Shown here: piece by piece, positions 733 through 62,179 of the stretch
Layout: each line of letters begins with the position of its first letter
How positions within the stretch are numbered: the first letter of the stretch is position 1
From: a virus
Direction: 5' to 3' (one strand)
Length of the DNA: 64,000 bases
IMG/VR virus record: IMGVR_UViG_3300033153_013649
Span: 95,838 to 159,837 of that record
Program-made: the position numbers and the translations under genes
The notes under the pieces: model-generated
Seen by the model: the letters and a program-made list of their open reading frames with translations, nothing else
What the model was told of the DNA's origin: nothing
Database searches by the model: none

Positions 733-924
733 ATGAGATATTCGGAATTAATTAGAGAAGCAATACACGAAGAAAAAGGCGATAAGAAGGAATATCAAGC
801 ATTTTTCAGAAAAGCTCTCAAAAAATTTGGTGTAACTGAACCAGATCAATTAGAAGGAGATAAGAAGAAAGAATTTTTTGATTATATCGATAAGAACTGG
901 AGCGCGAAATCAGAAACTGATTAG
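733..924 (+). CDS. Small head/internal protein with CTS-like leader
   Basis: Starts MRYSELIRE; YQAFF..ALKKFGV..P..L....KKEFFDYIDKNW resembles small T4-like prohead proteins. Confidence 0.7.
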   Translation: MRYSELIREAIHEEKGDKKEYQAFFRKALKKFGVTEPDQLEGDKKKEFFDYIDKNWSAKSETD

Positions 925-943
925 AAAATTTATAAGGAAAAAT

Positions 944-1171
944 ATGAAATATAGAGAAATATTAAATGAAGGATTCTTTTCAGAATTTCAAATTGTAGCT
1001 GGGGATTATTTCGGGGATAAATTCGTAAAAGATATGATGAAGATCAGCCGGAAAGAATCAGATTTAGTAAAAATCATATTAGCTACGGCTAAAAAACATA
1101 AAATTGAAAAAGATAATCAGAAACTTAAAGCTTTATTAAAGATGGCTGGTATGGTAAAAGGAAATATATAA
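944..1171 (+). CDS. Putative internal protein with CTS-like leader (start moved from 878)
   Basis: AAGGA RBS, then MKYREILNE. Confidence 0.7.
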   Translation: MKYREILNEGFFSEFQIVAGDYFGDKFVKDMMKISRKESDLVKIILATAKKHKIEKDNQKLKALLKMAGMVKGNI

Positions 1172-1293
1172 TGAATCATTCAGAAATATTAGAAGCAGAA
1201 TTAAAAGATGAAAAATTTTTTATTTATTTGATCAAAAACCGAATTATTAGAAAAAAATCAAAAGATCTTTTTAAAAAGAATAACAGAACTTAA
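1171..1293 (+). CDS. 40-aa peptide with CTS-like leader (not in ORF track)
   Basis: MNHSEILEAE; TAATG overlap with the upstream stop. Confidence 0.5.
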   Translation: MNHSEILEAELKDEKFFIYLIKNRIIRKKSKDLFKKNNRT

Positions 1294-1296
1294 AAA

Positions 1297-1539
1297 ATGA
1301 AATATCAAGAAGCTTTAGAGAGTAGATTTGATATGAGTAGTCGTAAAAGGATTAAAAGAGATCCCAAAAAGATTATGGTTACTTTAAAAAAGAATTATCC
1401 AAATATTAAATTTGAATTGAAAGATAATGTTTTATATGGAAATAAAAATCAATTAGGATCTTATCATTATGGATCTGGAAACGAATCGATTCAAGCTATT
1501 ATAGCTAAAATGAAAATGTTAGGACTTATTAAAAAGTAA
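1297..1539 (+). CDS. Putative internal protein with CTS-like leader
   Basis: MKYQEALE. Confidence 0.65.
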   Translation: MKYQEALESRFDMSSRKRIKRDPKKIMVTLKKNYPNIKFELKDNVLYGNKNQLGSYHYGSGNESIQAIIAKMKMLGLIKK

Positions 1540-1555
1540 AGGACCGAAAAATATT

Positions 1556-1978
1556 ATGAAATATAGAGAAATACTTGAAGGATTGAATCTTTCAGCTGCA
1601 ATTAAATCTCTTAAAATGGAAGAAGATCTTAAAACTCTTGCTAAAAAAAATCCGGGTAAAACAGGGAAACAATTAAAAAGAGAAATCATAACAATTGCTT
1701 CTAAATATATTGGAAAGTCTGAAATTAAAGATGTACATATTAAAGATCTAACACAGGAAGCTATAAAAGAATTTGATCGGATAATTAAAAAAGAAAAAAT
1801 AAGTGAAAAACTCGAACCTAATTGGATTATAGTTTTTAAGAATGGAAAAACTTTAGATATTAATAATGAACCAACAAACGTACCTTCTGAAACAGAGTAT
1901 TTTCAAACAGAGAAGGAAGCAATTAAGAGATTTAACAAGTTGAAGCTAAAAGGAAAAGCGGAAATAATAGAGGTATAA
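1556..1978 (+). CDS. Putative internal protein with CTS-like leader
   Basis: MKYREILE. Confidence 0.65.
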   Translation: MKYREILEGLNLSAAIKSLKMEEDLKTLAKKNPGKTGKQLKREIITIASKYIGKSEIKDVHIKDLTQEAIKEFDRIIKKEKISEKLEPNWIIVFKNGKTLDINNEPTNVPSETEYFQTEKEAIKRFNKLKLKGKAEIIEV

Positions 1979-1984
1979 AATAAA

Positions 1985-2134
1985 ATGAAATTCGGGGAGA
2001 TTGTGAATGAAGTAAATATTGATGCTATTAGATTAAATCAACTTACTAAATATGCTAGAACTAATAAAAAAGCTAAATATCAGATTTTAAAAAAGTTAAA
2101 AGAATTAATATTAAATATTGAAAAGGAAATCTAA
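1985..2134 (+). CDS. 49-aa peptide with CTS-like leader (not in ORF track)
   Basis: MKFGEIVNE; TAATG coupling to the next gene. Confidence 0.55.
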   Translation: MKFGEIVNEVNIDAIRLNQLTKYARTNKKAKYQILKKLKELILNIEKEI

Positions 2135-2319
2135 TGAATTTTGGTGATATTATAAACGAAGCTGCTTATCCAGGAAATATTGGATTTCAAGAATTAATAA
2201 ATTTTTATCGTGTAGCAAATAAAACTCAGATGAAAAAAATGCAAAACCTTATCGAAAAAGAAGATTGGTTAGGATTTAAAAAATTAATTCGAAAAACCTT
2301 AGGGATTAATTTACAATAA
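2134..2319 (+). CDS. Putative internal protein with CTS-like leader
   Basis: MNFGDIINE. Confidence 0.65.
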   Translation: MNFGDIINEAAYPGNIGFQELINFYRVANKTQMKKMQNLIEKEDWLGFKKLIRKTLGINLQ

Positions 2320-2340
2320 AATACAAAGAAGTTTTTTATT

Positions 2341-2592
2341 ATGAGATATTCGGAGATAATCGAAGAAGAAATTTTAAATGAAGGTAAACTCCTTACAGGA
2401 ATTATGATAGCTTTGGTATTATTTAAAGCTGCTGGAATGATTAATCGTACTGAATCAGATCCTATTACTCGTAAAGTTGCAGCAAAAATAACTAAATTAT
2501 CAGATGAAGAATTAGAAAAATTAAAATATAAATTTAATTTTAAAATTGATAAAAAAGAAGCAATTAAAACCTTAAAAAAATTGGGGTTCTAA
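2341..2592 (+). CDS. Putative internal protein with CTS-like leader and a hydrophobic helix
   Basis: MRYSEIIEEEILNE followed by LLTGIMIALVLF. Confidence 0.65.
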   Translation: MRYSEIIEEEILNEGKLLTGIMIALVLFKAAGMINRTESDPITRKVAAKITKLSDEELEKLKYKFNFKIDKKEAIKTLKKLGF

Positions 2593-31261: not shown

Positions 31262-31333
31262 TTCTCTTTTTTATTGACAATCTCTTTTTTTATTTAGTAT
31301 ATTATAAAGATTAATAGAATAAGGATTATAATA

Positions 31334-32081: not shown

Positions 32082-32741
32082 ATGAAAAGAGTAAAAATGA
32101 ATATAGACAAAGATGATGTAATTATTAAAGATCCCCCTGTTGAGAACGAACCCGATCATGTCTTATTGTTAACCGATGGAATTAATACAGAAACTTATGA
32201 ATATGCGCTTTTGAAATTAATGAAGGCTTATAATAACTGGCGAGTTCGAACCAGCCGGTACTGCCAGCTTCTTCCTACTTCTCCAGAAAATTTAGATAAA
32301 CTAAGAACAGTTGTTGTTGTATTAAATTCTCCAGGAGGATTTCTTAATACTGGATTTGCGATTTATGATTTACTTATGAGTCTCAAAGAAAAAGGAATGA
32401 AAATTATTACCTGTGGGATTGGAACTGTTGGAAGTGCTGCTACGGTAATTTATATGGCTGGAGAGAAAAGATATATATCTGAATCTTGTGTTTTTAATAT
32501 CCATGAACCTACTAGTTCTACAGGATCAGAAAAATATTCTGAATCAAAACGATCTCTTGAATTACTTCAAAAAGATTGGAATAAAGTACAAAATATTTAT
32601 ATTAAAGGAACAGGAACAAAAAATTGGATAGGATTTTTAAAAAATTATGATATAGATAAGGATGAAATTTATCTTAGATCCAAAGATTGTATAACTTATA
32701 GATTTTCGACTAACATAGGAATTCCGTTTGAAATATTTTAA
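32082..32741 (+). CDS. ClpP-like serine protease subunit
   Basis: LNSPGG..G.AIYD, G.VGSAAT.I..AG.KR, F.IHEP. Confidence 0.85.
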   Translation: MKRVKMNIDKDDVIIKDPPVENEPDHVLLLTDGINTETYEYALLKLMKAYNNWRVRTSRYCQLLPTSPENLDKLRTVVVVLNSPGGFLNTGFAIYDLLMSLKEKGMKIITCGIGTVGSAATVIYMAGEKRYISESCVFNIHEPTSSTGSEKYSESKRSLELLQKDWNKVQNIYIKGTGTKNWIGFLKNYDIDKDEIYLRSKDCITYRFSTNIGIPFEIF

Positions 32742-33283: not shown

Positions 33284-33354
33284 AAAAAAGTTGTTGACAA
33301 CCTCCATTTTATTTAGTATATTATATAGACAATAAAATTGGAGAAGAAAATGAA
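33284..33354 (+). repeat. About 70-bp promoter-RBS-start cassette, identical copy at about 47323-47393
   Basis: AAAAAAGTTGTTGACAACCTCC...GGAGAAGAAAATGAAA. Confidence 0.9.
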
Positions 33355-33763: not shown

Positions 33764-34684
33764 ATGGCACGAAAAAATTTTACAAAAAAGACAGTTAAAG
33801 AACTCGTAACTGATCGTATTATCGAACAACTTGATAAACAAGAAATTCCTTGGAGAAGAACTTGGGTATCAGAAGTTCCCACCTCTCTTAGTTCTGGTAA
33901 ACCTTATAGGGGATTGAATTATTTCATTCTTTCCTCTTTTGATTTCAAATCAAAATTCTGGGGGACCTTTAATCAGATTCAAGCTCTCGGTGGACGAGTT
34001 AAAAAAGGTGAAAAAGCAGCTATAGTTCAATTCTGGAAATTCGGTAGCTATCTAGAAAAAGATGAAGACGGAAATCCAATTATAACTGAATCAGGGGAAT
34101 TAAAAGAGGGGAAAAGGGTTTTATTACGATATTACAGAGTTTTTAATCTTGATCAAACTACAGGAGTTGATCTTAAAGGTAAGAAATATCAAGAACTTGT
34201 TAAATTAGCTGAAAAAAATAAAATTAATGTTGATTCAGAAAAAATATTAGAGAATTATTATAATCCTCCTTCTTATACTGAATCAATCACTGAAAATCCT
34301 AGGTATTCCCTCTCTCGAGACACTGTATTTATGCCTCCTATTGAAAATTTCGAGTCCTCCGATGAATATTATGCAACCCAGTTTCATGAATTAGTTCATT
34401 CTACAGGCCATGAATCTAGAAATAATCGATCTATTATGAATGGTAAGAATTCAGATCCTTATGCAGTAGAAGAATTAATAGCTGAAATCGGTGCTGCTTT
34501 ACTCTGTGGATATACTGGAATCGAAAATAAAAAAGTTTTTGAAAATAATGTCGCTTATATTCAAGAATGGAACAAGCGATTTAAAAACGACCGGAACGTT
34601 CTTTTGAAAGCTATTCAAGGTGCAAATAAAGGTGTTGATTTTATCCTTAATGAAAAAAAGAAACGAGATACTATAGATAATTAA
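33764..34684 (+). CDS. ardC: ArdC-like antirestriction protein (ssDNA-binding domain plus zincin-like domain)
   Basis: IPWRRTW, YRGLN, W.TFNQ....GG.VKKGEK, VFNLDQT, HELVHSTGH, YA.EELIAE.GAA. Confidence 0.85.
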   Translation: MARKNFTKKTVKELVTDRIIEQLDKQEIPWRRTWVSEVPTSLSSGKPYRGLNYFILSSFDFKSKFWGTFNQIQALGGRVKKGEKAAIVQFWKFGSYLEKDEDGNPIITESGELKEGKRVLLRYYRVFNLDQTTGVDLKGKKYQELVKLAEKNKINVDSEKILENYYNPPSYTESITENPRYSLSRDTVFMPPIENFESSDEYYATQFHELVHSTGHESRNNRSIMNGKNSDPYAVEELIAEIGAALLCGYTGIENKKVFENNVAYIQEWNKRFKNDRNVLLKAIQGANKGVDFILNEKKKRDTIDN

Positions 34685-35240: not shown

Positions 35241-35597
35241 ATGGATAAAAAATCCAAAAAAGTAGAATACGATCGGGAAAAACTAGATTTAATAAGAATA
35301 GATCTTCTTCGAGTTCTTCATAGAGAATTTCCAAATCTTCAAACTAGAGTAAATGTACTTAAAACTTTCGAAGATCGTATAATATTTGATATAAGAGCTT
35401 ATCTTTACGGCCAACAAAAAGTTATAAAGTTTCCTGTAAACTGGTGGCAATGTTTTAAAGAAGAAATGATGCCAAAATGGTTTAATAGGATTTTTCCGAT
35501 AAAATACTATCATTATAATTTTGTTGCAGTTTTTCCTAATTTAGCTGTTAAATTAGATGAACCCGTATCATTTATCTATTTTAGAAATGATAAATAA
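35241..35597 (+). CDS. Hypothetical protein
   Basis: P.NWWQ.FKE...P.WF...FP motif. Confidence 0.6.
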   Translation: MDKKSKKVEYDREKLDLIRIDLLRVLHREFPNLQTRVNVLKTFEDRIIFDIRAYLYGQQKVIKFPVNWWQCFKEEMMPKWFNRIFPIKYYHYNFVAVFPNLAVKLDEPVSFIYFRNDK

Positions 35598-35638
35598 TAA
35601 AAAGGGAAAAATAATAAACAGTTAAAGGAAGGTTGTGG

Positions 35639-37090
35639 ATGAAACGGTTTAAACAAATCTTTACTCGATGTGAAGAAATTATATTAGAGGAAAAATTATC
35701 CGGGGTTAGTAAAGATCAATTTGCTCTTCGAAAACATCTTAATGATAGAATTAAGAATGATTTGAAAATTAAGATCTTTAAGAGTTCACGTAAGAAGATT
35801 CCTCATATAAGAGCCCCTCTTGGAAAAACAGATGCAGAAGTAAGAGATAAAATCAATAAACTTGGAAGATATTTAATACAACCTGCTGAAATTCAAATAT
35901 CTGCTAAGTTTCCTACATTTGTAATTACTACCCTCGATGATATTAGATTTGGAAAAAAAGGTCTTATTCATAAAGGAACAGAAGTTTATTTTGTTAACAA
36001 TCAAGAAACTTCTGGATTAATCAAAAAGAAAGAAACTTCTCCCGCTGGATTAGGATTAGGAGGAATGGAAATCACTGTTAGTAATTATATTAATATTATA
36101 ATGCAAAGAGTAAATCATGTACTTTCTGATCGTAAACAAATCATTCCCTTCTTCGAAGAATTACTTAGAAAATCTGCAACTGGTCAAGCTGTAACAAAAT
36201 TCGATAAATCCTATGAAGATATTTCATCTTCTGATATTGCAAACCTTGCTAATGATTTTGGTGAAATCACTGGAGCTATATGGTATGCAAAAGTAAAAAA
36301 AGGTACTAAAATATTTTTTCCTTCTGCTTCAAATGAACCTTTAATTGATTATAAGGTGTTTATTCCTGTTGGTAAAGGGAAATCAAAACGATTAATTTGG
36401 CAGGATATTAGTGCAAAAGCTGGGGCTGGAGCAAGCCCGAGTATTTCAGGTATAATTAGTTCATTGAATAATAATCCAAAGCTCTTTCTTAAAGATGGTA
36501 AATCTGTTAATGAGAAATATGTCAAAGTAAAAGATTTTATTAATGCTATAAACAATGAAGGAGTAGTAGAAGGTATTCTTTCTGCAAATAGAATTATGGA
36601 TTCGAAAGGATATAAAGTGGTTCAGAAAATAATAGGAACTACTTTAATTACAGAATCTGTAATTATTGATTATATGAGTAAATTCACCGATTGGGATACA
36701 AATCTAGATCCGAAAAAGAATGCTAAATTTCATTTACTCAAATTATATGATGTAATAGGAAGGAAAATTAAAGCCGAAGAAGCACGTAAATTATTTGCTA
36801 TTACACGAGGTCTAGATCCGAAAACTCGTGGATCAAGATTAATGGGATATATTTCTGCCCCTCTTGGATATCATATTGTTGATATAGTAAATCAACTTCC
36901 AGAATTTAATAATTTTCTTAATGATGCTCTTCGAAGTATTCAAATAATTCAAATTTATATAAATATAACAAAACGACAGATTTCTTATAAAATTAAAGAC
37001 TTTAAAGAATCAAATTTTAAATGGAAATATTCTGGTAGTGCACCAAATCCAAAAGTGAAAAAAATTGGTTTTGAATTAAAGAAAAAATAA
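35639..37090 (+). CDS. CTS-like leader plus putative PD-(D/E)XK nuclease-like domain
   Basis: MKRFKQIF..EEIILEE; DFGE..GA...FP..SNEPLIDY...ISAK. Confidence 0.55.
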   Translation: MKRFKQIFTRCEEIILEEKLSGVSKDQFALRKHLNDRIKNDLKIKIFKSSRKKIPHIRAPLGKTDAEVRDKINKLGRYLIQPAEIQISAKFPTFVITTLDDIRFGKKGLIHKGTEVYFVNNQETSGLIKKKETSPAGLGLGGMEITVSNYINIIMQRVNHVLSDRKQIIPFFEELLRKSATGQAVTKFDKSYEDISSSDIANLANDFGEITGAIWYAKVKKGTKIFFPSASNEPLIDYKVFIPVGKGKSKRLIWQDISAKAGAGASPSISGIISSLNNNPKLFLKDGKSVNEKYVKVKDFINAINNEGVVEGILSANRIMDSKGYKVVQKIIGTTLITESVIIDYMSKFTDWDTNLDPKKNAKFHLLKLYDVIGRKIKAEEARKLFAITRGLDPKTRGSRLMGYISAPLGYHIVDIVNQLPEFNNFLNDALRSIQIIQIYINITKRQISYKIKDFKESNFKWKYSGSAPNPKVKKIGFELKKK

Positions 37091-37788
37091 TGAATAGATT
37101 TAAGGAAATATATTTTTCTGAACCTTTATTAGAAGGAATTTATGATCCATCTATATTTAAAGGAATATTTATAGCTGGAGGCTCTGGTAGTGGAAAGAGT
37201 TTTATTACCGGGAAAGTAGTTCCCGGGCACGGATTTAAAATAATCAATTCAGATATTTTATTTGAAAGAATGATGAAGAAAGCTAATTTAGATCTTGATT
37301 TAGAAAAATTAAATACTAAACAACTTATCAAAAAGGATGAAATAAGAGCAAGAGCAAAAGAATTAACATTAAAAACAAAAAATAGATTTATTAAAAATCA
37401 CTTAGGATTAGTGATAGATGGTACAGGTCGAGATACGACTGTTATTGAACTACAAAAAAGAAGATTAGAATCTAACGGATATGATACTTTTATGATCTTT
37501 GTTAATACTTCTTTAGAGGTTGCTTTAGAAAGAAACGCTAATAGATTAAGAAAATTACCGGAAGATATGATAAAGAAATTTTGGAAAGATACTCAGAAAA
37601 ATATTGGCAGATATCAAAATATGTTTGGACCCTCGAATTTTTTAATTATAGATAATAATCATGTAGATGAAAAAATTTTAAATAAAGTTTGGAAATTAAT
37701 TAGTAAATTTGAAAAGAAACCAATTCAAAACCCAATTGCTAAAAATTTTATTGAAGCAGATAAAATAACGAGAGGAATAAAACAATGA
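37090..37788 (+). CDS. CTS-like leader plus P-loop kinase (AAA_33/zeta-toxin/PNK-like)
   Basis: MNRFKEIY..EPLLE; GGSGSGKS, INSD, VIDGTG, ALERNANR.R. Confidence 0.8.
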   Translation: MNRFKEIYFSEPLLEGIYDPSIFKGIFIAGGSGSGKSFITGKVVPGHGFKIINSDILFERMMKKANLDLDLEKLNTKQLIKKDEIRARAKELTLKTKNRFIKNHLGLVIDGTGRDTTVIELQKRRLESNGYDTFMIFVNTSLEVALERNANRLRKLPEDMIKKFWKDTQKNIGRYQNMFGPSNFLIIDNNHVDEKILNKVWKLISKFEKKPIQNPIAKNFIEADKITRGIKQ

Positions 37789-38117
37789 AATATAAAGAAA
37801 TTTTAAATGAAAAAATGAATCAAGAACATCATTATTTTGATGAACGATCGAAGAAATATATTCTTGCTGTTGGACCAAATCTTTATGAAGCTCGTAAAAT
37901 CGTAACTGGAAAGATAGGAGAAGAGCCAAAAAACGAAGTTATATTTGTAAAAATGGATTCTTCAGATGAAAAGAAAGCATTTCGACAGTTAGGGAAAGAT
38001 CTTCAACTTATAAAAAGAAAAGATTTTTTAAAGAAAATTTCTAAAAATTGGGGTATAAAAATTAACAATATTCATACAAGTACAAGATTATCAAAATTAG
38101 ATCTAAGAGAACTTTAA
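37785..38117 (+). CDS. Putative internal protein with CTS-like leader
   Basis: MKYKEILNE. Confidence 0.65.
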   Translation: MKYKEILNEKMNQEHHYFDERSKKYILAVGPNLYEARKIVTGKIGEEPKNEVIFVKMDSSDEKKAFRQLGKDLQLIKRKDFLKKISKNWGIKINNIHTSTRLSKLDLREL

Positions 38118-38119
38118 AT

Positions 38120-38365
38120 ATGAAATATAAAGAAATTCTTGAAAAGCAATGGCTTAAAGATGTTAAACCAAAATATCATCCTCCTGAAGGAACTTTTACA
38201 AAAAAAGCTGCTGCAATTGCGGCTCAATTATTAAAAGATTCTTCTTCTCCAGCTCAAGCAATGCAAAGATTAAATTTTTACATTAATCGTGCAGGAAAAG
38301 ATTTAACAAATAAAGCTGAATTAGAAAAAGCCAAAGACATTATTTCGAAAAAAATAGAATCATAA
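38120..38365 (+). CDS. CTS-like leader plus small domain resembling DUF3175
   Basis: MKYKEILE; PPEGTF....IA..L......AM.RLNFYINRAGK.L. Confidence 0.65.
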   Translation: MKYKEILEKQWLKDVKPKYHPPEGTFTKKAAAIAAQLLKDSSSPAQAMQRLNFYINRAGKDLTNKAELEKAKDIISKKIES

Positions 38366-38369
38366 TAAA

Positions 38370-38855
38370 ATGGTCAAATTTAAAGAAATATATTTAGATC
38401 CAAGGAGTATTCCAGAACCAACGGAGAAACAGATTAAATCTGGAAAATATCCAAAAAGATTAATTAAATGGCACGGATTAAAAATTCGAATTGAAAACGA
38501 AGAGGGAACAATCAGAAGAGGAATTGGACCCGATGGGATTCCTTGGGAAACAGAATTCAAGTATCCATACGGATATATCGAAGGATTCAAAGGATTAGAT
38601 AAAGATGAATTAGATGTATTTGTTGGTCCTTTAATTAACTTTCCTCCAGCAAATAAAGTATATATTGTTAATCAGGTTAAAGATGACGGATCACCAGACG
38701 AAGAAAAAATTATTATAGGAGTCGATAGTAAAGATTCTGCTAAAAAAGTATATCTTTCAAATTATGAAATAGGATGGAAAAATTATAGAAAAATAGAAGA
38801 AATGAGTATTAGAGAATTTTTATTATGGATACATAATAAAAACAATAGATCTTAA
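38370..38855 (+). CDS. CTS-like leader plus inorganic pyrophosphatase-like domain
   Basis: MVKFKEIY; IEN..G..R.G, YGYI....G.D.DELDVFVG, DEEK..IG, YL.NY..GW. Confidence 0.75.
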   Translation: MVKFKEIYLDPRSIPEPTEKQIKSGKYPKRLIKWHGLKIRIENEEGTIRRGIGPDGIPWETEFKYPYGYIEGFKGLDKDELDVFVGPLINFPPANKVYIVNQVKDDGSPDEEKIIIGVDSKDSAKKVYLSNYEIGWKNYRKIEEMSIREFLLWIHNKNNRS

Positions 38856-38916
38856 TAGGAAATAAAAAATATGAACTGCCGAGATTCAAAGAAACTAAAG
38901 AAAGAACGAGAAAATC

Positions 38917-40050
38917 TTGGATAAAAAAAAGCAAAAAATAATGATTAAGGAGGAGTGGTCAAGTCCGTATAATCCATTTAATACATTTAAAGCTTTAATT
39001 TGGAGAGAATGGTTTGAAGGGATTGTAAACGGAGAATTTTTACCCCCTGTTACATTAGATACAGATCCTTCTAATATTTGTAATTTTAAATGTATATGGT
39101 GTAACTCCTATCAAATTCATTGTAAAGATCAGATGTTACCCGAAGAACATCTTATTGCTCTTGCAAAATTTTATGGTGAATGGGGAATTAAATCTACATG
39201 CGTTGCTGGGGGAGGTGAGCCTCTAACAAATCCAGGATTCAATAATTTTATAATACATTTATCTAAGAACAAAGTACAGTCAGGAGTAGTAACTAATGGT
39301 TCACTTATGACTGACGATCATATAAATACTATAGTCCGCAACTCTCGTTTTTGTGGATTTTCAATGGATGCTGGTAAACCAGAAACGTATGCTAAAGTGA
39401 AAGGTCTAAGGAAAAAACAAGGGGAACAAATCTTTATAAAGGTAGTTGATAATATTGCAAAGATGGCCAAAGAAGCATCGAAATTTAAATCTGAATTTAG
39501 AATAGGATATAAATATCTTATTCACCCAGATAATGCTCTTGAAATATACGATGCTGCTGTTCTGGCTAAAAATCTTGGAATTGATGATTTTCACCTAAGA
39601 CCCGTTGGCTGGGATAATATTAACATTACTAGAAAAAAGGATCCAATTTCTTTTAAAGGATTATTAGATGAAATAAATGACCAGATCCAACGCGCGCTGG
39701 AGTTAGAAGACAACAAATTCAAATTCTTTGGAGTGAGACATAAGTTTAGTCCAGATATGAAAAAGAAAGTTAACTTCTCTAAATGTCGAGCATTACCATT
39801 ACATCTAACTTTTGGAGCTGATGGAAACGTACATTTATGCTTTGACAGAAGGGGGGATAAAGATTTAATACTATGTAAACATTTCCCAGAAGTTAAAGAA
39901 GTACTTACTGTTTGGGGTTCAGATTATCACAAGGAAATGATGGATAAAATAAATCCGGAAAAAGACTGTCCAAGGTGTACTCTCGGTCCCCATCAGGAAA
40001 TAATAGAAAAAGTATTCATGAAAGATGATATGTGCAGAATGTTTCCATAA
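38917..40050 (+). CDS. Radical SAM protein with SPASM/twitch-like C-terminus
   Basis: CNFKCIWC, GGGEP, TNG, C...GADGNV..C, CPRC. Confidence 0.9.
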   Translation: MDKKKQKIMIKEEWSSPYNPFNTFKALIWREWFEGIVNGEFLPPVTLDTDPSNICNFKCIWCNSYQIHCKDQMLPEEHLIALAKFYGEWGIKSTCVAGGGEPLTNPGFNNFIIHLSKNKVQSGVVTNGSLMTDDHINTIVRNSRFCGFSMDAGKPETYAKVKGLRKKQGEQIFIKVVDNIAKMAKEASKFKSEFRIGYKYLIHPDNALEIYDAAVLAKNLGIDDFHLRPVGWDNINITRKKDPISFKGLLDEINDQIQRALELEDNKFKFFGVRHKFSPDMKKKVNFSKCRALPLHLTFGADGNVHLCFDRRGDKDLILCKHFPEVKEVLTVWGSDYHKEMMDKINPEKDCPRCTLGPHQEIIEKVFMKDDMCRMFP

Positions 40051-40091
40051 TGATGGATTTTATAAATAATATTATAAAAAGATAAATTATA

Positions 40092-40490
40092 ATGAAATAT
40101 TCGGAAGTATTAGTTTTAATTGAAGCTAGATCTGGATCTCAAGATACCTTCAAAGTTATGAAAAATTTTATATTCACAAATAGTATAAGTGGTACAAGAA
40201 AAAAATTAAAATCTTGGGAAATAGATCCAAAATATTCAAACAAATTAACAATTATAGCGTTTGAAAAAGGAACAGGAAATCTAGTAGTCGCAGAAGAAGG
40301 AGACGAAAACACAGAAGATTTTGTTTTAGTAGAAAAAGACCAATGGGAAAAAGCTCTTAAAGAAAAAGCCATAAAGCAGATTGGAAATAATTATAATGAA
40401 TTTTTAAATTGGCTTAAAGAAGGAGGGATTAATCCAAAAGGTTATTTATTAGATTTAAAAGATGCTTTCGGGAAAACTTTTAAATATTAA
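40092..40490 (+). CDS. Putative internal protein, paralog of 42257..42847
   Basis: MKYSEVL..IE; SQDTFKVMK.F.FT shared. Confidence 0.65.
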   Translation: MKYSEVLVLIEARSGSQDTFKVMKNFIFTNSISGTRKKLKSWEIDPKYSNKLTIIAFEKGTGNLVVAEEGDENTEDFVLVEKDQWEKALKEKAIKQIGNNYNEFLNWLKEGGINPKGYLLDLKDAFGKTFKY

Positions 40491-40533
40491 AAATTATGAG
40501 AAAACCTTTTAAAACAAAATAAGGTAAATTATA

Positions 40534-41043
40534 ATGAAATATTCTGAAATATTAGCAGAAGCAAATAAAAAACCTAAAGTTCCATCTAGAGTACCAAAAA
40601 CCCTCAAAGAAGTTTATAAGGCTTGGGGATCTATTCCAAAAACGCATGAAGAAGCCGTTGAGATGATGCATTGGTTTGGTAAAACATTTTCTAAAAAATT
40701 AAATAAAGAAGTTTTTGAAGTAACCAAAAAATGTATTGTTGAATCTTATGCTTGGGGCCCCTTTGAATGTGATGAAGGAGGTATTACTGATGCTTGGTGG
40801 AAAAAAGCATTCTTAGATTCAGCGTATGATGAAGAATATATAGAAGAAACAAAATTATATGCTAAAGCTAATAAAATGTCAGTTGATAAAATTCGAAAAA
40901 TCTGGAGTAAAGTTAAAGAGAATGTAGATGCTAATAATTTTATTCGGATGATGGATTGGATAACAGACGAATATGATGAACCGGCTATTTATTATTTATA
41001 CGTTAAAATGCCTACTTCTACCAATATGGATATTGGATATTAA
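40534..41043 (+). CDS. Putative internal protein with CTS-like leader
   Basis: MKYSEILAE. Confidence 0.65.
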   Translation: MKYSEILAEANKKPKVPSRVPKTLKEVYKAWGSIPKTHEEAVEMMHWFGKTFSKKLNKEVFEVTKKCIVESYAWGPFECDEGGITDAWWKKAFLDSAYDEEYIEETKLYAKANKMSVDKIRKIWSKVKENVDANNFIRMMDWITDEYDEPAIYYLYVKMPTSTNMDIGY

Positions 41044-42260
41044 TGCGAAATAGATTCAAACAAATCCTAAACGAATTAGTACATTTAGAGTACGAATATC
41101 GCGATCAGGGTAAAGAATTTATTAATAAATTATTTAATAAATTTGTTACTGTTACTGTGAAAGTTGATTTTGCTGCTCTTGCTGTAGAGAATACGGGTAG
41201 AAAAATCACGTATTGGGGAAGAGAAGGAAAGAAAGAAATAACTCCGGTCATTCGTAAGTCTTTTGATTATTATGAAGATGCTATTGCTTATTTAGAAACT
41301 AAAAACCTCACTAAGATCATTCCACCTGGTTGGAAAATATATTTCGAAATGGCTAATAATTACAACTTCGGCGCCATGGGAAATATGGTTATAGCTTATC
41401 CAAAACGTCCAAAAAATAATTTAGTCCTTAACTATGCTACAGATGGTTCAGGGAAACGTATTGTTCCTTCTGATCCAAAAGTACTTAAAATAGCAAAAGA
41501 TCTTGACGTGCATCCTCCAGTGGTATTGTTTGCTGGAAAATTAAACGGAGCACAGAAAAAGAAGATTCTCGACTTTTTCAATATGAACGAAGACGAAAGA
41601 AGAGATAAACTGGGGCATGAGAATTTTACTAACTATTTCGTCTCTCTCTTTAATTCTAAATTCTCTGGAATGATGGGAACTAGAATTATGGAAGGGCTAG
41701 TATTCTATTTCAATAATGATGAAAACGATGTTTATATGGCTAAGGTTATCGATCCAATGTTTAAAATCGAACACACCCTCTCCGGAGATGATCCACGTAC
41801 AGTAAAACTTAGAGAACTTGAAAATCGCAAACGGGGATGGTTCAAACAAATGGTGGGATGGATAAATAAAAATAGGGGTAAAATTAAAGTTCTTATAAGA
41901 AAAGTACAAATTCCTGATAATATTGTTGACTATGATGATAAATTTTTGTATATTATGGATGAAACAGCTTACCAATTATGGCTAAGAAATCTCAAACAAA
42001 AAATGGAGAAGGAATTTGAAGGTTACGTTGACGAAGAAAAGAACTTCAGAAATTTCAACTGGAAAGAATTTACAAACCCGCAACTCATATCTGAACTTAA
42101 AAAGAACGATGTTCTTAAATTATTTTACCGTGTATTTTCTGTTGTTTATTACCAAGAGCATAAAAGAGGATCCGGGAAAATCGGAGACAAGGAAAGTGTT
42201 GCAAAAATCAATGACCTAGCAAAATTCATCAAACAACATATTGAAAAGAGATTAAAATGA
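41043..42260 (+). CDS. CTS-like leader plus divergent ATP-grasp/RNA-ligase-like nucleotidyltransferase
   Basis: MRNRFKQILNE; motif I-like TVKVDF, IYFE, MEGLVF, MAKVID..F. Confidence 0.55.
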   Translation: MRNRFKQILNELVHLEYEYRDQGKEFINKLFNKFVTVTVKVDFAALAVENTGRKITYWGREGKKEITPVIRKSFDYYEDAIAYLETKNLTKIIPPGWKIYFEMANNYNFGAMGNMVIAYPKRPKNNLVLNYATDGSGKRIVPSDPKVLKIAKDLDVHPPVVLFAGKLNGAQKKKILDFFNMNEDERRDKLGHENFTNYFVSLFNSKFSGMMGTRIMEGLVFYFNNDENDVYMAKVIDPMFKIEHTLSGDDPRTVKLRELENRKRGWFKQMVGWINKNRGKIKVLIRKVQIPDNIVDYDDKFLYIMDETAYQLWLRNLKQKMEKEFEGYVDEEKNFRNFNWKEFTNPQLISELKKNDVLKLFYRVFSVVYYQEHKRGSGKIGDKESVAKINDLAKFIKQHIEKRLK

Positions 42261-42847
42261 AATATAAAGAAATATTAACAAAAGTTAAATCTAGAACTTC
42301 CTCTGGATCTGAAAAGGAAACATCACCACCTAAAGTTAAAATAAGATCTCAAGATACTTTCAAAGTTATGAAAAAATTTACATTTACAGATGTTACAATT
42401 GGAAGGCACCTTCCTCATGGCGGTGATAGGGGTAAGGCGGCGAAATTTTGGAAAATAAGCCCTAATCATCCAAGTAAATTAATGGTTTTAGCGTTTGATA
42501 TCAAATCTGGAGACTGTGTAGTAATAGATTATAATATAGTAAAATCAAAAGTAAAAAAAGCAGCTTTATATAAATATTTTTTAGTAAAAAAAGAAGAACT
42601 AGAAAGAGCTTTAGAAGAAGAAGCTCTAGAGTTTCTTGGTAATTTTAAAGGAGATTTTTTAAAGTGGATAGAAAAAGATAGAATTTTAAATTATTATCCT
42701 GATCAAGAATTATTTTATAGATCTCCCAAAATTTATAAATCTATGTTAGATAGAGCTATAGAAGGATTAGATGCAGTAGGTTTTTTATATTATTTAAAAT
42801 CAGAAATTTTTTTCTTTAGTAATCGATCCCTTAATTTCAAATATTAA
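42257..42847 (+). CDS. Putative internal protein, paralog of 40092..40490
   Basis: MKYKEIL; SQDTFKVMKKF. Confidence 0.65.
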   Translation: MKYKEILTKVKSRTSSGSEKETSPPKVKIRSQDTFKVMKKFTFTDVTIGRHLPHGGDRGKAAKFWKISPNHPSKLMVLAFDIKSGDCVVIDYNIVKSKVKKAALYKYFLVKKEELERALEEEALEFLGNFKGDFLKWIEKDRILNYYPDQELFYRSPKIYKSMLDRAIEGLDAVGFLYYLKSEIFFFSNRSLNFKY

Positions 42848-42862
42848 AAACAAGAGATTAAA

Positions 42863-43066
42863 ATGAGATATAAAGAAATATTAGAAAAATCCAAAAACTT
42901 ATCAATGCTAGATAAGCGCCAAATATCTATAGCAAAAAAAACTTTAAGTATGCCTGATGCAATGGGAGGAGTTATGGGAGGACCTAGTAAAAGAGAAGCT
43001 CGAGAAATTTTAATAAAATTTGGATATTCTGATAAAGAAATTAAAAAATTGGAAAAAGGGAAATGA
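42863..43066 (+). CDS. Putative internal protein with CTS-like leader
   Basis: MRYKEILE. Confidence 0.65.
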   Translation: MRYKEILEKSKNLSMLDKRQISIAKKTLSMPDAMGGVMGGPSKREAREILIKFGYSDKEIKKLEKGK

Positions 43067-43428
43067 AAATGAAATATAAAGAATTAAATCAATCTTTAAA
43101 TGAAGGGGTCAAAATAAAAGAAGAATGGATGTCTGAATATGGAGTTGGATATATTGAAATTGATGGAGCTGAATCTCAACATGGAACTCTTAAAGGAAGA
43201 ATTGATAGTGGATATACTACCGATGGAAAAGCAAGTATAGAAATTTCTACATCTGCTCAAAATTTCAAAATAAACTTTAAGCCCCCTAAATTTACAAATA
43301 AAGAATCTCGCAGCGAAGCAAATGCATGGGTTGCTGAAAGACTTGATAATATGAAAAAAGATCTTCTTAAATTAAAGGGAGATTTTGATAAAAAAGCTAT
43401 AACTATAGCAAAAAAATATTCAAAATAA
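43063..43428 (+). CDS. Putative internal protein with CTS-like leader
   Basis: MKYKEL...LNE. Confidence 0.65.
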   Translation: MKMKYKELNQSLNEGVKIKEEWMSEYGVGYIEIDGAESQHGTLKGRIDSGYTTDGKASIEISTSAQNFKINFKPPKFTNKESRSEANAWVAERLDNMKKDLLKLKGDFDKKAITIAKKYSK

Positions 43429-43473
43429 GAAAGAATTTCATAAGAAGATTTAGAATAAGTTATTTAAGAAATA

Positions 43474-44067
43474 ATGAAACGCTTTTTTTCTGAAATATTT
43501 AACGAAGCTCTCGATAAGAAAGAATTAGTACAAGCTTCTAAACCTGCAGTATTAATACAAGGTAGATTTCAACCTCTTACTTTAGGTCATACTACAGCAG
43601 CAAAAAATTTAATGAAAAAACATCCAGGAGGAAAACTAATCTTTGGAGTAGTCAGAGGCTTAGGAAGCTCAGAAAACAAAGAATTAAATCCTTTTTCTTT
43701 TAAAGAACAATCAAAATTTATTAAAAAAGTATTTCCTCAAGCGGTAATTATGGAATTCAAAAATGGATTTACCCCTGATAATATTCTCGAAGCTAGAAAA
43801 AAAGGATTTGAAATTATAGCTTTTATTGCTGGGGAAGATAGAATAAAAAGTTATAAAGAACAATTGAAATATTTTGATAAAATAAAAAGAGAAAATCCAG
43901 ATTTCGAAAAGCCTCAAGCAGTTCCAATCGGTATAAAAAGAGTTGGGGATATTTCAGCTACTAAAGTAAGAGAAGCTATAAGAAACAATGAAGAGAAAAT
44001 CTTCCGAGCTAATATGCCTAAAGCTCTTTATGATGAATTCGAATTTATGAAAAAAATAATCAAATGA
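43474..44067 (+). CDS. CTS-like leader plus HIGH-superfamily nucleotidyltransferase (cytidylyltransferase-like)
   Basis: MKRFFSEIFNE; GRFQPLTLGH, NPFS, AGEDR, ISATKVR. Confidence 0.85.
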   Translation: MKRFFSEIFNEALDKKELVQASKPAVLIQGRFQPLTLGHTTAAKNLMKKHPGGKLIFGVVRGLGSSENKELNPFSFKEQSKFIKKVFPQAVIMEFKNGFTPDNILEARKKGFEIIAFIAGEDRIKSYKEQLKYFDKIKRENPDFEKPQAVPIGIKRVGDISATKVREAIRNNEEKIFRANMPKALYDEFEFMKKIIK

Positions 44068-44220
44068 AAAAATCAGAAAAACCAAAAAAGAAAAAATCTT
44101 CTAGATCTGGATATCGATTTAAAGATTTATTAAAAGAACAAGATATTTTACTTATACATAAAATTCAAAATTCTCTTAGAGAAAACGAAAAAGAAAACCA
44201 AAAATAAAAAAAGAAAAAAG

Positions 44221-44619
44221 ATGACAATTTTCAGAGAAGCTTTAAACGAAAATAAAAATCGAATTACTAAAGCTATGCCAAGATCTTTGAAAAATAAGAT
44301 AATGAACGAAATTTACAAAAAAGTTCTCACAAATAAAACTTTTAAAGAAATTCCAATTAGTAAAATTTCAGAGATTTTCGAAAAACATGGCGCCGTTTTA
44401 CTTCAAGAGGATTATACTCCTTGGGCAGGCTTTTTACTTGGTTCAGAAGGAAGCGCTTCTATTATGATAGGAGACAAAAATCTCGGGCATCCCTTATCAG
44501 AAGAGAAATTTAATTCTTCGGGAGAATTCTGGTTTCCTCAATTCAAAAACGCTTGGTTTCAAATTCAATGGTATAAGTTACCGTCCGGGAATTATGAAAT
44601 AACTGCATATATTAGTTGA
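44221..44619 (+). CDS. Putative internal protein with CTS-like leader
   Basis: MTIFREALNE; WYKLPSGNYEITAYIS C-terminus. Confidence 0.65.
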   Translation: MTIFREALNENKNRITKAMPRSLKNKIMNEIYKKVLTNKTFKEIPISKISEIFEKHGAVLLQEDYTPWAGFLLGSEGSASIMIGDKNLGHPLSEEKFNSSGEFWFPQFKNAWFQIQWYKLPSGNYEITAYIS

Positions 44620-44662
44620 CAAACTAATCTTAGATTTAGTATATTATAAAAAAAGGAGAATA

Positions 44663-60349: not shown

Positions 60350-60775
60350 ATGATAAGGTTTAAAGAATTATTCAAGAAAAAAATGATAGAAGAAGGGGAG
60401 GAAAGCGTTTCTTCTTACAGCTCTTCTGGAGCAGAAAATACGGATATAGCGAGAGCTCCCGCGCGTATCGGTAAAAAGAAGAAAAAGATTTTAAAAAAAG
60501 AAATTCCGAGTGTATCTGAAAAACTATTCGATCAATCATTACTTCCAACTGGATATGTTTTTGTAGGAAAATCTGATAAAGAAGTTTCTGTCCGAACATT
60601 AAAATATCCCGGTTTGGATATTTTTATCCAATATGATAAAAATGATAATATTACTTTTTTTAGAGTATATGATTGGGAAAAAGAAGAAACAAACCTATTT
60701 TTATATAAAAACGGAAAAGTAAAGGAATCTAAAGGTAAAGGAAGATTGATTGCTAAAGATTTTGGATTAATTTAA
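60350..60775 (+). CDS. Putative internal protein with CTS-like leader
   Basis: MIRFKELF...MIEE. Confidence 0.6.
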   Translation: MIRFKELFKKKMIEEGEESVSSYSSSGAENTDIARAPARIGKKKKKILKKEIPSVSEKLFDQSLLPTGYVFVGKSDKEVSVRTLKYPGLDIFIQYDKNDNITFFRVYDWEKEETNLFLYKNGKVKESKGKGRLIAKDFGLI

Positions 60776-60778
60776 TAT

Positions 60779-61240
60779 ATGGGAAAACTTAAAGCTCCAC
60801 GAAATAAAAGAAATAAAAGAATTAAACAAGGACAATATATTTGTAAAAATCCTCAAAAATACGCAGGAGATCCAACGACAATTAGATATATGTCAAGTTT
60901 GGAATTATCTTTTATGAAATATTTAGATAATTATCCAAATATTTTAAAATGGGGGTCAGAAACAATAATAATACCTTATTTTGATAAATCTAGCAATAAA
61001 AAAAGAAATTACTACGTTGATATTTATGTAGAATATTTAGGAACAGATAACGAAAAACATAAGGCTCTTATAGAAATAAAACCTTCGTCTCAATGTAAAA
61101 AGCCGAAGATAAAAACAAAAACTTATAACCAACGCATGAAACTTTGGATACAAAATCAATCTAAATGGCAAGCAGCAAAAAATTGGGCGGAAAATAGAGA
61201 GATGAGATTTTTTCTTTTAACAGAAAAGGATATTCGTTAG
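60779..61240 (+). CDS. gp4: Head completion nuclease, gp4-like (TnsA-N fold)
   Basis: KNPQKY.GD...I.Y.SS.E, W.SE...IPY, YYVD, LIEIKP, NQ.KW.AA, LTEKD. Confidence 0.92.
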   Translation: MGKLKAPRNKRNKRIKQGQYICKNPQKYAGDPTTIRYMSSLELSFMKYLDNYPNILKWGSETIIIPYFDKSSNKKRNYYVDIYVEYLGTDNEKHKALIEIKPSSQCKKPKIKTKTYNQRMKLWIQNQSKWQAAKNWAENREMRFFLLTEKDIR

Positions 61241-61300
61241 TTGGCATAAGTGGATTAAGGTTTTCTAAAGTTATTAAAAAAGATACTATAAACAAAGTAA

Positions 61301-62179
61301 ATGAAAAGATTTAAACAAATATATTTAGATCCTATATTAGAACTAAGTGAAAAATCAACAGTCTATCATAGAAATACAGCCAATTTAAAAATTGGTTCAA
61401 TAATGACTGCAGCTAAAGCTAAAAAAGGTGGAAAGCATTGGTTAGCTAGAAGAGAAGATGAACAATTAATAGAAGATATAAGAAGGAAATATTATAAAAA
61501 TAAACCGTCTAGATTCGATTGTATATACTCATCTGTAATTCCAAAAGCTAGATTCATGTCAAAAGGAGCTTTATATGAATTGAAACCTCTTGGAAAAATG
61601 CACATGACTAATTCAAAAATAATCGATGATATGAGTACTCTTAAGGATCTTGATGATAAAATTGCTGCAGCTCACAAATATTGGAATCCTAGTAGCGATT
61701 TTTTAACAAAAAGAAATATAATTGATATTGAAGTGTTATCAGATAAAGCGTTAGTTTTAAGAAAAGTTGATGATGAATGGAATAATGGAGATAGAGTAAG
61801 ATTAAAAACAGAGTGTACAGTTATTTGGTACGCGTACGGTCTCGATGATAATACAAAGTTATCTGATGAAGAAATAGAACAAATATTAAAACACAAGAGT
61901 ATTAAATCCTATGAAGAAGAACAAGGTATATCCGCTAGATATAAAGTAACATTTAAAAAAGGCACTAAAGGAGAAATATCAAGAGTCAAATATACAGATA
62001 AAGAAAGAAGAAGTCCTGATTCTGGTCCTAGGAAGTATCTTGTAAGATTTGATCAATTAGATTTAAGAATAGATGGAATAAAAAATACTAATTTTAGTTT
62101 TCATCCTTTTTATGTTACAGCAAAAGGGCAAAAACCAGAACAATCTCAGAGAGTAGAGTATTTTCTTGAAAAGATTTAA
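61301..62179 (+). CDS. CTS-like leader plus possible ADP-ribosyltransferase-fold domain
   Basis: MKRFKQIY..PILE; VYH, E..RR.YY..KPSR..CIY, YW, EVL. Confidence 0.5.
   Translation: MKRFKQIYLDPILELSEKSTVYHRNTANLKIGSIMTAAKAKKGGKHWLARREDEQLIEDIRRKYYKNKPSRFDCIYSSVIPKARFMSKGALYELKPLGKMHMTNSKIIDDMSTLKDLDDKIAAAHKYWNPSSDFLTKRNIIDIEVLSDKALVLRKVDDEWNNGDRVRLKTECTVIWYAYGLDDNTKLSDEEIEQILKHKSIKSYEEEQGISARYKVTFKKGTKGEISRVKYTDKERRSPDSGPRKYLVRFDQLDLRIDGIKNTNFSFHPFYVTAKGQKPEQSQRVEYFLEKI

Follow-up and report, generated by a model that had tools for sequence, protein, structure and literature searches.

Why do more than a dozen phage proteins, several of them predicted enzymes of different folds, begin with the same short peptide? 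The question is raised by a block at positions 35639–44619 of a 64,000-nucleotide stretch of DNA (hereafter the window) that covers positions 95,838 to 159,837 of the IMG/VR virus record IMGVR_UViG_3300033153_013649. The window is the final 64 kb of this complete 159,837-bp record, which has direct terminal repeats and a G+C content of 29%, and whose gene content identifies the genome as that of a T4-like phage. The block contains 14 plus-strand open reading frames (ORFs), 13 of which carry the leader, the sole exception being a radical SAM gene; a megablast search of the block against phage records gave no match. An initial annotation of the window had read the block as a possible virion-packaged enzyme set that comprises a nuclease, a kinase, a pyrophosphatase, a ligase-like protein and a nucleotidyltransferase. 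The explanation that we favor, and hold to be somewhat probable as a whole, is that the tagged block encodes capsid cargo and that its enzymes act as a set on nucleic-acid ends.

The tagged ORFs share the pattern M-[KR]-(x)-[YF]-[KSQ]-[EQ]-[ILV]-[LFY], followed within a few residues by (L/I/F)-x-E. Among the non-nested plus-strand ORFs of the genome, a leader-like motif beginning at residues 2–6 is found in 27 of 202, as compared with 0.78 expected from the motif rate at internal positions, which corresponds to an N-terminal enrichment of about 35-fold. The block of leader-bearing ORFs described by the initial annotation is thus confirmed. An [LIFVM]xE site ending within residues 6–18 occurs in 12 of the 13 tagged ORFs of the block, and most of the tagged proteins are basic (isoelectric point 9–10). 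The leader copies differ in their synonymous codons (ATT/ATA/ATC, TTA/CTT/CTA, AGA/CGG/CGC) while the residue classes stay the same; therefore, selection acts on the peptide, and the conservation lies at the protein level.

Further tagged groups lie at window positions 733–2592 and 60350–62179. In addition, the late structural region that directly follows the capsid genes contains tagged ORFs (genome 6455–10836; MKYREILE, MGRFKELLE, MKFSEIINE, MSKFIKEFLE and MKKFSTILNE). A tagged 282-aa ORF (MKKFSKILLEK, genome 84387) directly follows an untagged RNA ligase gene, in a region (genome 83225–85235) about 11–12 kb before the window start; this gene is not among the clusters named in the initial annotation.

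Direct comparison of the block leaders with T4 internal proteins reveals a close resemblance, as T4 ipII and ipIII start with MKTYQEFIAE followed by A, and ipI starts with MKTFKEF. In T4, the decapeptide of the capsid-targeting sequence (CTS) mediates targeting mainly through residues 4 and 7 and processing through residues 8 and 10, gp21 cleaves after L/I-x-E, and the T-even internal proteins form a diverse set with only the leader in common (PMC9026906; PMC3012670). The leaders of the 13 ORFs follow the CTS rule, with aromatic or hydrophobic residues at about positions 4 and 7 and a length of about ten residues.

The machinery for processing such leaders is also predicted in the genome. A gp21-type prohead protease matches Peptidase_S77 (PF03420; 56.7 bits versus a cut-off of 27), and its GHP and SSRGLGS stretches align with T4 gp21. 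Scaffold-, major-capsid- and vertex-sized genes lie downstream of the protease gene behind TATAAATA late promoters. In direct alignment, AGLTE/V of the capsid protein is matched to FLTE65/A of T4 gp23 (slash, cut), the known maturation site; the gp23 propeptide comprises 65 residues (PMC9026906). With residues 1–101 of the capsid protein as query, tblastn returned no match.

The leader is found on homologues of the tagged enzymes as well. Among the closest 21 ligase-like homologues, 14 bear M[KR]xF..[YF][IL]xE directly ahead of a conserved HL, and the leaderless ones begin at this HL itself. About 70 of the 79 kinase homologues examined on viral contigs start with a leader (MKTFKELQE/GVYDP, MKSYKQLIE/GV and MIRFSEFIAE/GV; slash, leader end), with Glu-Gly always at the domain boundary, and the nucleotidyltransferase proteins adjoining kinase homologues are tagged too. 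Furthermore, leader residues 1–9 of the ligase-like protein of the window are disordered in the AlphaFold2 (AF2) model (predicted local distance difference test score, pLDDT, below 50). These comparisons show the leader to be a separable appendage ahead of the predicted catalytic domains.

Relatives of the tagged nucleotidyltransferase are known from virions. Virion mass spectrometry covers the homologues of S-SM1, S-SCSM1 and S-CREM2. The cytidylyltransferase T4-GC190 ranks among the cyanophage core genes and was determined experimentally to be a virion protein (Sullivan et al., PMC3037559), the nicotinamide mononucleotide adenylyltransferase (NMNAT)-like ORF91 of S-SCSM1 was detected in purified virions by mass spectrometry (PMC9602691), and S-CREM2 virions hold a cytidylyltransferase (ORF154) and a kinase (PMC10665884). 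S-SCSM1 ORF91 begins with MKSFLQFLKEAAE and matches the window nucleotidyltransferase at E 5e-10; its virion-protein neighbor ORF89 begins with MDSKTFNSLSE, and Syn9 gp184 begins with MKKFSAFLSEAE. In the literature that we searched, no link had been drawn between the cyanophage virion nucleotidyltransferases and a capsid-targeting leader.

Because of the analogy with T4 IPI–III and Alt, together with the virion mass spectrometry of the cyanophage relatives, we consider with good confidence that the leader brings the tagged proteins into the prohead core, that the gp21 homologue trims them and that they leave the head together with the DNA. The leader would dock the proteins on the scaffolding core of the prohead, the protease would cut it off after Glu, and the mature, mostly basic proteins would stay in the head with the DNA until they are ejected into the host at infection. 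The virion delivery put forward by the initial annotation is in line with the T4-type leader, the gp21-type protease, the appendage pattern and the virion detection of relatives; the radical SAM gene falls outside the delivered set.

Several observations weigh against packaging. ORF 42257 has no (L/I)xE in its first 26 residues, and several leader sites are F-x-E or sit 15–18 residues in. No convincing terminator was found between the transcription units, so that the block could be read through from a sigma-70-like promoter at window position 33294. The authors of the S-CREM2 study, who note the frequent detection of such proteins, caution about co-purifying abundant proteins (PMC10665884). 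Alternatively, the leader could be a translation-initiation or regulatory feature, or a scar of gene-cassette recombination, and the enzymes would then be cytoplasmic like the products of ordinary metabolic genes. Starts rich in AAA, TAT, GAA and ATT are cheap at 29% G+C, and the homologue of the nucleotidyltransferase in Stenotrophomonas phage Moby has no leader at all, suggesting that the enzyme can work without one. By comparison, the residues of the leader are conserved while its changes are synonymous and conservative, its Glu-ending pattern recurs in distant relatives of higher G+C and fits the experimentally defined CTS of T4, a relative detected in virions carries it, and it is missing from the radical SAM gene, the replication genes and those of the tRNA island, which together render this alternative improbable.

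If the tagged proteins are packaged, the question becomes what the enzymes among them do. The kinase scores above the Pfam cut-offs for AAA_17 (2e-9; 38.2 bits versus 27), AAA_33 (2e-8; 34.9 versus 27) and Zeta_toxin (1e-6; 28.4 versus 22.3), and contains the Walker A sequence GGSGSGKS at residue 30. In the PDB, its family profile matched zeta toxin (1gvn, 2e-6), PSTK (2e-3) and the CthPnkp kinase (0.01), with PezT also listed; over all searches, the kinase is closest to zeta toxin, followed by PSTK, adenylate kinases and the CthPnkp kinase. An IMG/VR scan with the single kinase sequence found no relatives, and more than 576 IMG/VR relatives were found with a three-kinase alignment as query. 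The Zeta_toxin score and the zeta toxin being the best PDB match, with PezT listed, also raise the alternative that the kinase is an injected zeta-toxin-like effector acting on a nucleotide sugar or NAD and shutting down host wall synthesis or metabolism, the other enzymes being independent cargo. Zeta toxins are kinases of UDP-GlcNAc, and AvrRxo1, which is zeta-like, is a kinase of NAD. In addition, toxin-type domains are common among injected phage proteins (PMC5512222). The match is limited to the P-loop core (residues 18–127 of 221), and the tight linkage or fusion with the nucleotidyltransferase described below argues for a shared pathway, so we regard such an effector as quite improbable.

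The ligase-like protein has no Pfam match of its own. A phmmer search against 1.84 billion representatives, clustered at 50%, yielded 198 relatives; IMG/VR scans with the protein or its two-sequence alignment found none, and sequence-only PDB searches of the ligase-like, nucleotidyltransferase and 483-aa proteins gave nothing useful. The AF2 model built with the alignment of the relatives reached a pLDDT of 90.8, and its residues ~10–246 match the nucleotidyltransferase domain of RNA ligases, with T4 Rnl2 (2hvq) found by Foldseek at E 4e-6. VIA matches include NgrRnl (6vt9; Z 12.8, root-mean-square deviation 3.1, 182 aa), T4 Rnl2 (1s68; Z 11.5), Trl1 (Z 11.1) and Rnl1 (Z 10.9), as compared with Z near 8 for DNA ligases. 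In these searches with the whole model, the structural matches span residues 8–246 only, and none of the known accessory domains of ligases (Rnl1/Rnl2 C-terminal domain or Rnl5 N-terminal OB domain) was matched by the helical part (residues 250–405). The best BFVD matches are to a 'cytidyltransferase-like domain-containing protein', which is a fused form, and then to viral RNA ligases; PF09414 (RNA_ligase) is matched by 17 of 64 long relatives. The catalytic residues are all present, namely K40 (100 of 107 sequences), E102 (80/107), E217-G218 and K234 (103/107).

The nucleotidyltransferase provides the only PF01467 match in the genome (25.2 bits versus a cut-off of 21), and contains GRFQPLTLGH at residue 30 and ISATKVR at residue 160, both of which are common to the whole HIGH superfamily. 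Its scores against the NCBIfam models of NMNAT lie far under the cut-offs (NF002243, 22.6 versus 127 bits; TIGR01527, 17.1 versus 181). With the family profile, matches to phosphopantetheine adenylyltransferase (PPAT) are equal to or better than those to NMNAT, and the PDB matches include MJ0541 and NadM. Homologues were found in 160 phage records, mostly of T4-like cyanophages.

Comparison of these families reveals that the three enzymes are linked in relatives. The 567-aa protein P0002 is a natural fusion of a part like the 41043 protein (36% identity) and a part like the 43474 protein (33% identity), and 43 of the 64 long ligase-like relatives contain a CTP_transf_like domain, which is the fused form. 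At least 45 of the long ligase-like relatives have a C-terminal domain to which the window nucleotidyltransferase is matched; therefore, the window pair represents a split version of a common fusion, with a leader on each half. In 20 of 57 loci with enough flank, the gene immediately downstream of the kinase gene is that of the nucleotidyltransferase, the same order is found in HTVC008M (gp129–gp130), and in locus L024 (1111–4656) the two form a single 1181-aa ORF. Because of this fusion and adjacency in relatives, gene context shows the kinase, the predicted RNA-ligase-fold adenylyltransferase and the HIGH nucleotidyltransferase to be one functional set. Neither the InPase nor the 483-aa protein was found in the kinase-homologue loci.

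Several additional features were seen in relatives. The tagged nucleotidyltransferase of marine relatives is multidomain (L060:5351-8122, L056:5165-7519, L072:4211-7603 and L024:1111-4656), its forms being Pol-beta nucleotidyltransferase (NTase) + HIGH + DUF5824, PAP2 phosphatase + HIGH + DUF5824, and the kinase fusion of L024. P0002, encoded on a 5276-bp Logan contig, has a C-terminus that ends in KIVSFKQFREML and resembles a capsid-targeting leader, which may reflect a gene call running into the next tagged gene or a lost stop codon. DUF6267 proteins with an N-terminal HLEHxED, seen at L003:6242-7474, L005:3782-4744 and L007:8293-9516, constantly adjoin the kinase/cytidylyltransferase genes in HTVC008M, Syn9 and C48C1, and that of C48C1 begins with the leader-like MMLDFKNFITE. 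As candidate kin of the ligase-like family, the DUF6267 proteins (HTVC008M gp127 and Syn9 gp183) showed no relation by hhalign, and the domain is absent from the genome of the phage.

The linkage of kinase and nucleotidyltransferase also bears on the main rival explanation, a packaged NadR-like route to NAD+, in which the kinase would act on nicotinamide riboside or a related nucleoside, the nucleotidyltransferase would convert NMN to NAD+ and the InPase would pull the reaction. Such a route could counter NAD+-depleting defenses or feed NAD+-using effectors at time zero. NadR joins a HIGH nucleotidyltransferase with a P-loop kinase (PMC9503650), relatives have the kinase and nucleotidyltransferase side by side or as a single protein, the nucleotidyltransferase finds its best named matches in the two NMNAT models given above and also matches MJ0541 and NadM in the PDB, with GRFQP..GH and ISxTxxR present, and cyanophage papers name the virion protein NMNAT-like. 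By comparison, the shortfall of the NMNAT models and the equal or better PPAT matches argue against an NMNAT, and the kinase falls outside the RNK type of NadR, with zeta toxin and PSTK closest. The fusion of the nucleotidyltransferase to an RNA-ligase fold or a Pol-beta NTase would be left unexplained, and a few hundred injected enzyme molecules seem weak for rebuilding a metabolite pool. NadV is absent from the genome, for which reason the NadV + NMNAT salvage pathway was rejected. On balance, the NAD+ route is unlikely.

The fourth enzyme-like member, the InPase, matches PF18823 over nearly its whole length (E 4e-41; 140.4 bits versus 26.8; residues 19–154, profile positions 1–134 of 135), and bears the acidic signature DKDELD at residues 77–82. 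In other phages, the domain forms part of large proteins of the virion, portal, minor-head or DarB-like kinds; it is known from polyvalent proteins of phages, for which packaging and injection are predicted (PMC5512222). A word-indexed search, which gives weak evidence, found no other stand-alone InPase of like length. With these results, the kinase, pyrophosphatase-like and HIGH-type nucleotidyltransferase classes named by the initial annotation stand on their profile matches and motifs, and the ligase-like class on its fold, its family and the retained catalytic Lys/Glu/Lys. The proteins might also be packaged yet inert, serving as basic DNA-condensing internal proteins with enzyme folds as mere relics, as most have an isoelectric point of 9–10 like the T4 internal proteins, which contact DNA (PMC3012670). 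This is very improbable given the family-wide conservation of ligase K40/E102/E217/K234, the kinase Walker A and lid arginines, the T/HxGH and ISxTxxR of the nucleotidyltransferase, and the acidic signature of the InPase.

We tentatively favor the possibility that the enzyme set works on nucleic-acid ends, most likely those of host or phage RNA or tRNA cut by defense nucleases, because the RNA-ligase fold has intact catalytic residues, the kinase has PNK and PSTK affinities, and Pol-beta NTases occur as partners. The kinase would supply the 5'-phosphate, adenylylation and sealing would fall to the ligase-like enzyme, and pyrophosphate from both nucleotidyl transfers would be cleared by the InPase; repair could then start before any phage gene expression. 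A number of points weigh against such a role. The kinase appears closest to zeta toxin, a small-molecule kinase. Of the KxDG-type ligase motif claimed for the 41043 protein, the Lys and Asp of motif I are kept and the Gly is replaced by Phe43 (K-V-D-F); this position is Q, S, T or F in the tagged subfamily and mostly G in the wider family. KptA (PF01885) was not found in the genome, and searches of the block with Pfam, PHROGs and NCBIfam yielded no phosphoesterase domain for 3'-end healing (2',3'-cyclic phosphodiesterase or 3'-phosphatase), the small ORFs not having been modelled. The HIGH nucleotidyltransferase has, to our knowledge, no place in heal-and-seal repair, and elsewhere the genome encodes an RNA ligase of canonical type with no leader (373 aa; PF09414, 80.5 bits). 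A broader proposal, that T4-like phages of many habitats carry an injected, leader-loaded repair kit for nucleic-acid ends (kinase, RNA-ligase-fold enzyme, HIGH and sometimes Pol-beta nucleotidyltransferases, and in this phage a pyrophosphatase), is doubtful at present. If true, damage done by host nucleases that cut tRNA or mRNA could be undone ahead of all phage gene expression, a protein-level form of counter-defense not described for any phage.

The remaining members of the block are listed with the enzymes in Table 1.

Table 1. Coding features of the leader-tagged block and promoter-like elements around it (window coordinates; a slash marks the end of the leader; aa, amino acids)
Feature	Coordinates	Strand	Length (aa)	Leader	Remarks
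Sigma-70-like promoter	33294..33322	+			TTGACA-17-TATATT; upstream of block, ahead of untagged genes
Late-promoter-like motif	35589..35596	+			GATAAATA; 44 nt before first tagged ORF; one base off TATAAATA consensus
Tagged basic protein	35639..37090	+	483	MKRFKQIF...ILE/E	
Tagged P-loop kinase, zeta-toxin/PNK-like clade	37090..37788	+	232	MNRFKEIYFSEPLLE	GIYDP follows leader
Tagged basic protein	37785..38117	+	110	MKYKEILNE/K	
Tagged basic protein	38120..38365	+	81	MKYKEILE/K	DUF3175 (PF11373), 30.1 bits versus 27
Tagged stand-alone InPase (family I pyrophosphatase-type OB domain)	38370..38855	+	161	MVKFKEIYLDPRSIPE	P follows leader
Untagged radical SAM gene	38917..40050	+			PF04055, E 3e-15; CNFKCIWC at residue 55
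Late-promoter consensus	40061..40068	+			TATAAATA; 31 nt before tagged ORF 40092, first after radical SAM gene
Tagged protein	40092..40490	+	132	MKYSEVLVLIE/A	Paralogue of 42257
Tagged protein	40534..41043	+	169	MKYSEILAE/A	
Tagged RNA-ligase-fold adenylyltransferase (predicted) + helical C-terminal domain	41043..42260	+	405	MRNRFKQILNE/L	
Tagged basic protein	42257..42847	+	196	MKYKEILTK...	Paralogue of 40092
Tagged basic protein	42863..43066	+	67	MRYKEILE/K	
Tagged protein	43069..43428	+	119	MKYKELNQSLNE	G follows leader
Tagged HIGH-superfamily nucleotidyltransferase, NMNAT/PPAT-like	43474..44067	+	197	MKRFFSEIFNE/A	PF01467
Tagged protein, last ORF of block	44221..44619	+	132	MTIFREALNE/N	
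Sigma-70-like promoter	44616..44645	+			TTGACA-18-TATATT; closes block

For the first ORF, the start at ATG 35639 (MKRFKQIF) is most likely, in preference to an upstream TTG at 35633. Its 483-aa product has no Pfam, PHROG or NCBIfam match, and its homologues comprise four proteins plus one in the Kyanoviridae phage C48C1. The AF2 model reached a pLDDT of 69, with the N-terminal ~125 aa poorly modelled, and gave weak structural matches to MspI (E 0.21), HinP1I (E 0.75) and I-Ssp6803I (Z 5.2); the Atlas leads, RE_HaeIII, HinP1I and PDDEXK_1, have low template-modelling scores. E209, D237, S258 and K260 are invariant, and D237 and S258-x-K260 are located on predicted neighboring strands of the model, with Ser where PD-(D/E)XK has an acid. 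The C-terminal part of the protein may thus contain a PD-(D/E)XK-like core.

The radical SAM gene was identified correctly in the initial annotation as an untagged member of the block. The protein scores below every NCBIfam cut-off, shows a weak likeness to tungsten-cofactor maturase, viperin and SPASM-type enzymes, and is matched by only four distant phage records. It was rejected as a member of the set, as it lacks the leader, is seldom found in phages and precedes a new late-type promoter; the gene has the look of an insert independent of the tagged genes around it. Apart from DUF3175, no informative Pfam or PHROG match was obtained for the eight small tagged proteins, two of which (40092 and 42257) are paralogues with 31% identity (E 1e-13). 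For these small proteins, a role as DNA-associated internal proteins or as inhibitors of the T4-IP kind is probable.

The late-type promoter motifs of Table 1 make late expression of the tagged block plausible, and perfect TATAAATA copies also stand ahead of the gp22, gp23 and sheath-sized genes of the same genome. Five near-identical sigma-70-like promoters (TTGACA, 17–18 nt, TATATT; 11/12 matches) were found on the plus strand at window positions 31274, 31648, 33294, 44616 and 47333, all of them intergenic, and probably mark early transcription units of the phage; the strong ones at 33294 and 44616 flank the tagged block. The unit starting at 33294 contains an untagged ArdC-type gene (33764–34684, plus strand; ArdC-N, 2e-25; zincin peptidase MPTase-PolyVal, 2e-28), roughly 1 kb ahead of the tagged block. 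Anti-restriction modules of this kind are characteristic of polyvalent proteins and conjugative elements; in this case, the carrier is a T4-like phage. A ClpP-related serine protease (32082–32741, plus strand), which matches the NCBIfam model 'head maturation protease, ClpP-related' at 53.9 bits, below the cut-off of 120, coexists with the gp21-type prohead protease in the same phage.

Proteins packaged with the DNA act before any phage gene is read, and thus bear on how an infection is established. If the leader reading is true, such cargo, including whole enzyme sets, would be predictable from sequence in thousands of uncultured T4-like phages. This reading would also explain the recurring 'cytidylyltransferase/NMNAT-like' proteins and kinases in cyanophage virion proteomes. 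In addition, our analysis defines a large uncharacterized RNA-ligase-fold family, with 198 representatives at 50% clustering and long forms that are mostly fused, and suggests that InPase, a polyvalent-protein domain, would be deliverable by the T4 leader route and not only inside a giant polyprotein. Delivery by CTS and gp21 is already known from T4, as are virion NMNAT-like proteins and kinases from cyanophages and injected effector domains from polyvalent proteins. By comparison, the leader as a common mark of such enzymes, the ligase–nucleotidyltransferase family and the tagged stand-alone InPase appear to be new, and the split ligase/nucleotidyltransferase pair is new as well.

The packaged proteins known from T4 are few (IPI*, Alt and gp2), and such leaders already serve as tags for loading foreign proteins into T4-type heads. 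Like T4 IPI, IPII, IPIII and Alt, the tagged proteins have a leader of about ten residues with an aromatic residue at position 4, a hydrophobic residue at position 7 and an (L/I)xE end, in a phage with a gp21-type protease. As in T4, unrelated and mostly basic bodies stand behind a shared leader, and T4 Alt is also an enzyme. Unlike T4, which has a handful of tagged genes, the phage has about 24–27. None of the kinase, RNA-ligase-fold, HIGH nucleotidyltransferase and pyrophosphatase types of its predicted cargo is known as T4 cargo, and the mature parts of its tagged proteins have no sequence homology to T4 IPI–III. The cyanophage virion NMNAT-like proteins (T4-GC190, Syn9 gp184, S-SCSM1 ORF91 and S-CREM2 ORF154) share the homologous domain, the kind of leader and the T4-like background; they comprise 380–600 aa with extra domains such as DUF5824, whereas the window nucleotidyltransferase is a bare 197-aa domain.

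As in polyvalent proteins (Iyer, Burroughs, Aravind et al. 2017, PMC5512222), effectors would be delivered with the DNA, and the block is preceded, at a distance of 1 kb, by an ArdC-N + MPTase gene. A polyvalent protein is a giant polypeptide cut by an internal peptidase and has at least two effector domains, whereas each domain here is a separate small tagged gene and the InPase ORF is single-domain. The ligase-like protein resembles T4 Rnl2, Naegleria NgrRnl (Rnl5), fungal Trl1 and T4 Rnl1 in its fold (Z 11–13) and in motifs I (Lys), III (Glu), IV (EG) and V (Lys). It differs from these known RNA ligases in its low identity (~13–16%), in the replaced glycine of motif I and in the usual fusion of its relatives to a HIGH nucleotidyltransferase. 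T4 Pnkp and Rnl1 counter the anticodon nuclease PrrC, and Trl1 combines ligase, kinase and cyclic phosphodiesterase (CPDase). As in these tRNA repair systems, a P-loop kinase and a predicted RNA-ligase-fold enzyme occur in one set. Unlike them, the block has no 3'-end healing domain that we could find, and its kinase is nearer to zeta toxin than to Pnk. Furthermore, T4 Pnkp and Rnl1 are expressed early, whereas the enzymes of this phage are capsid-tagged, and the phage has a separate untagged RNA ligase.

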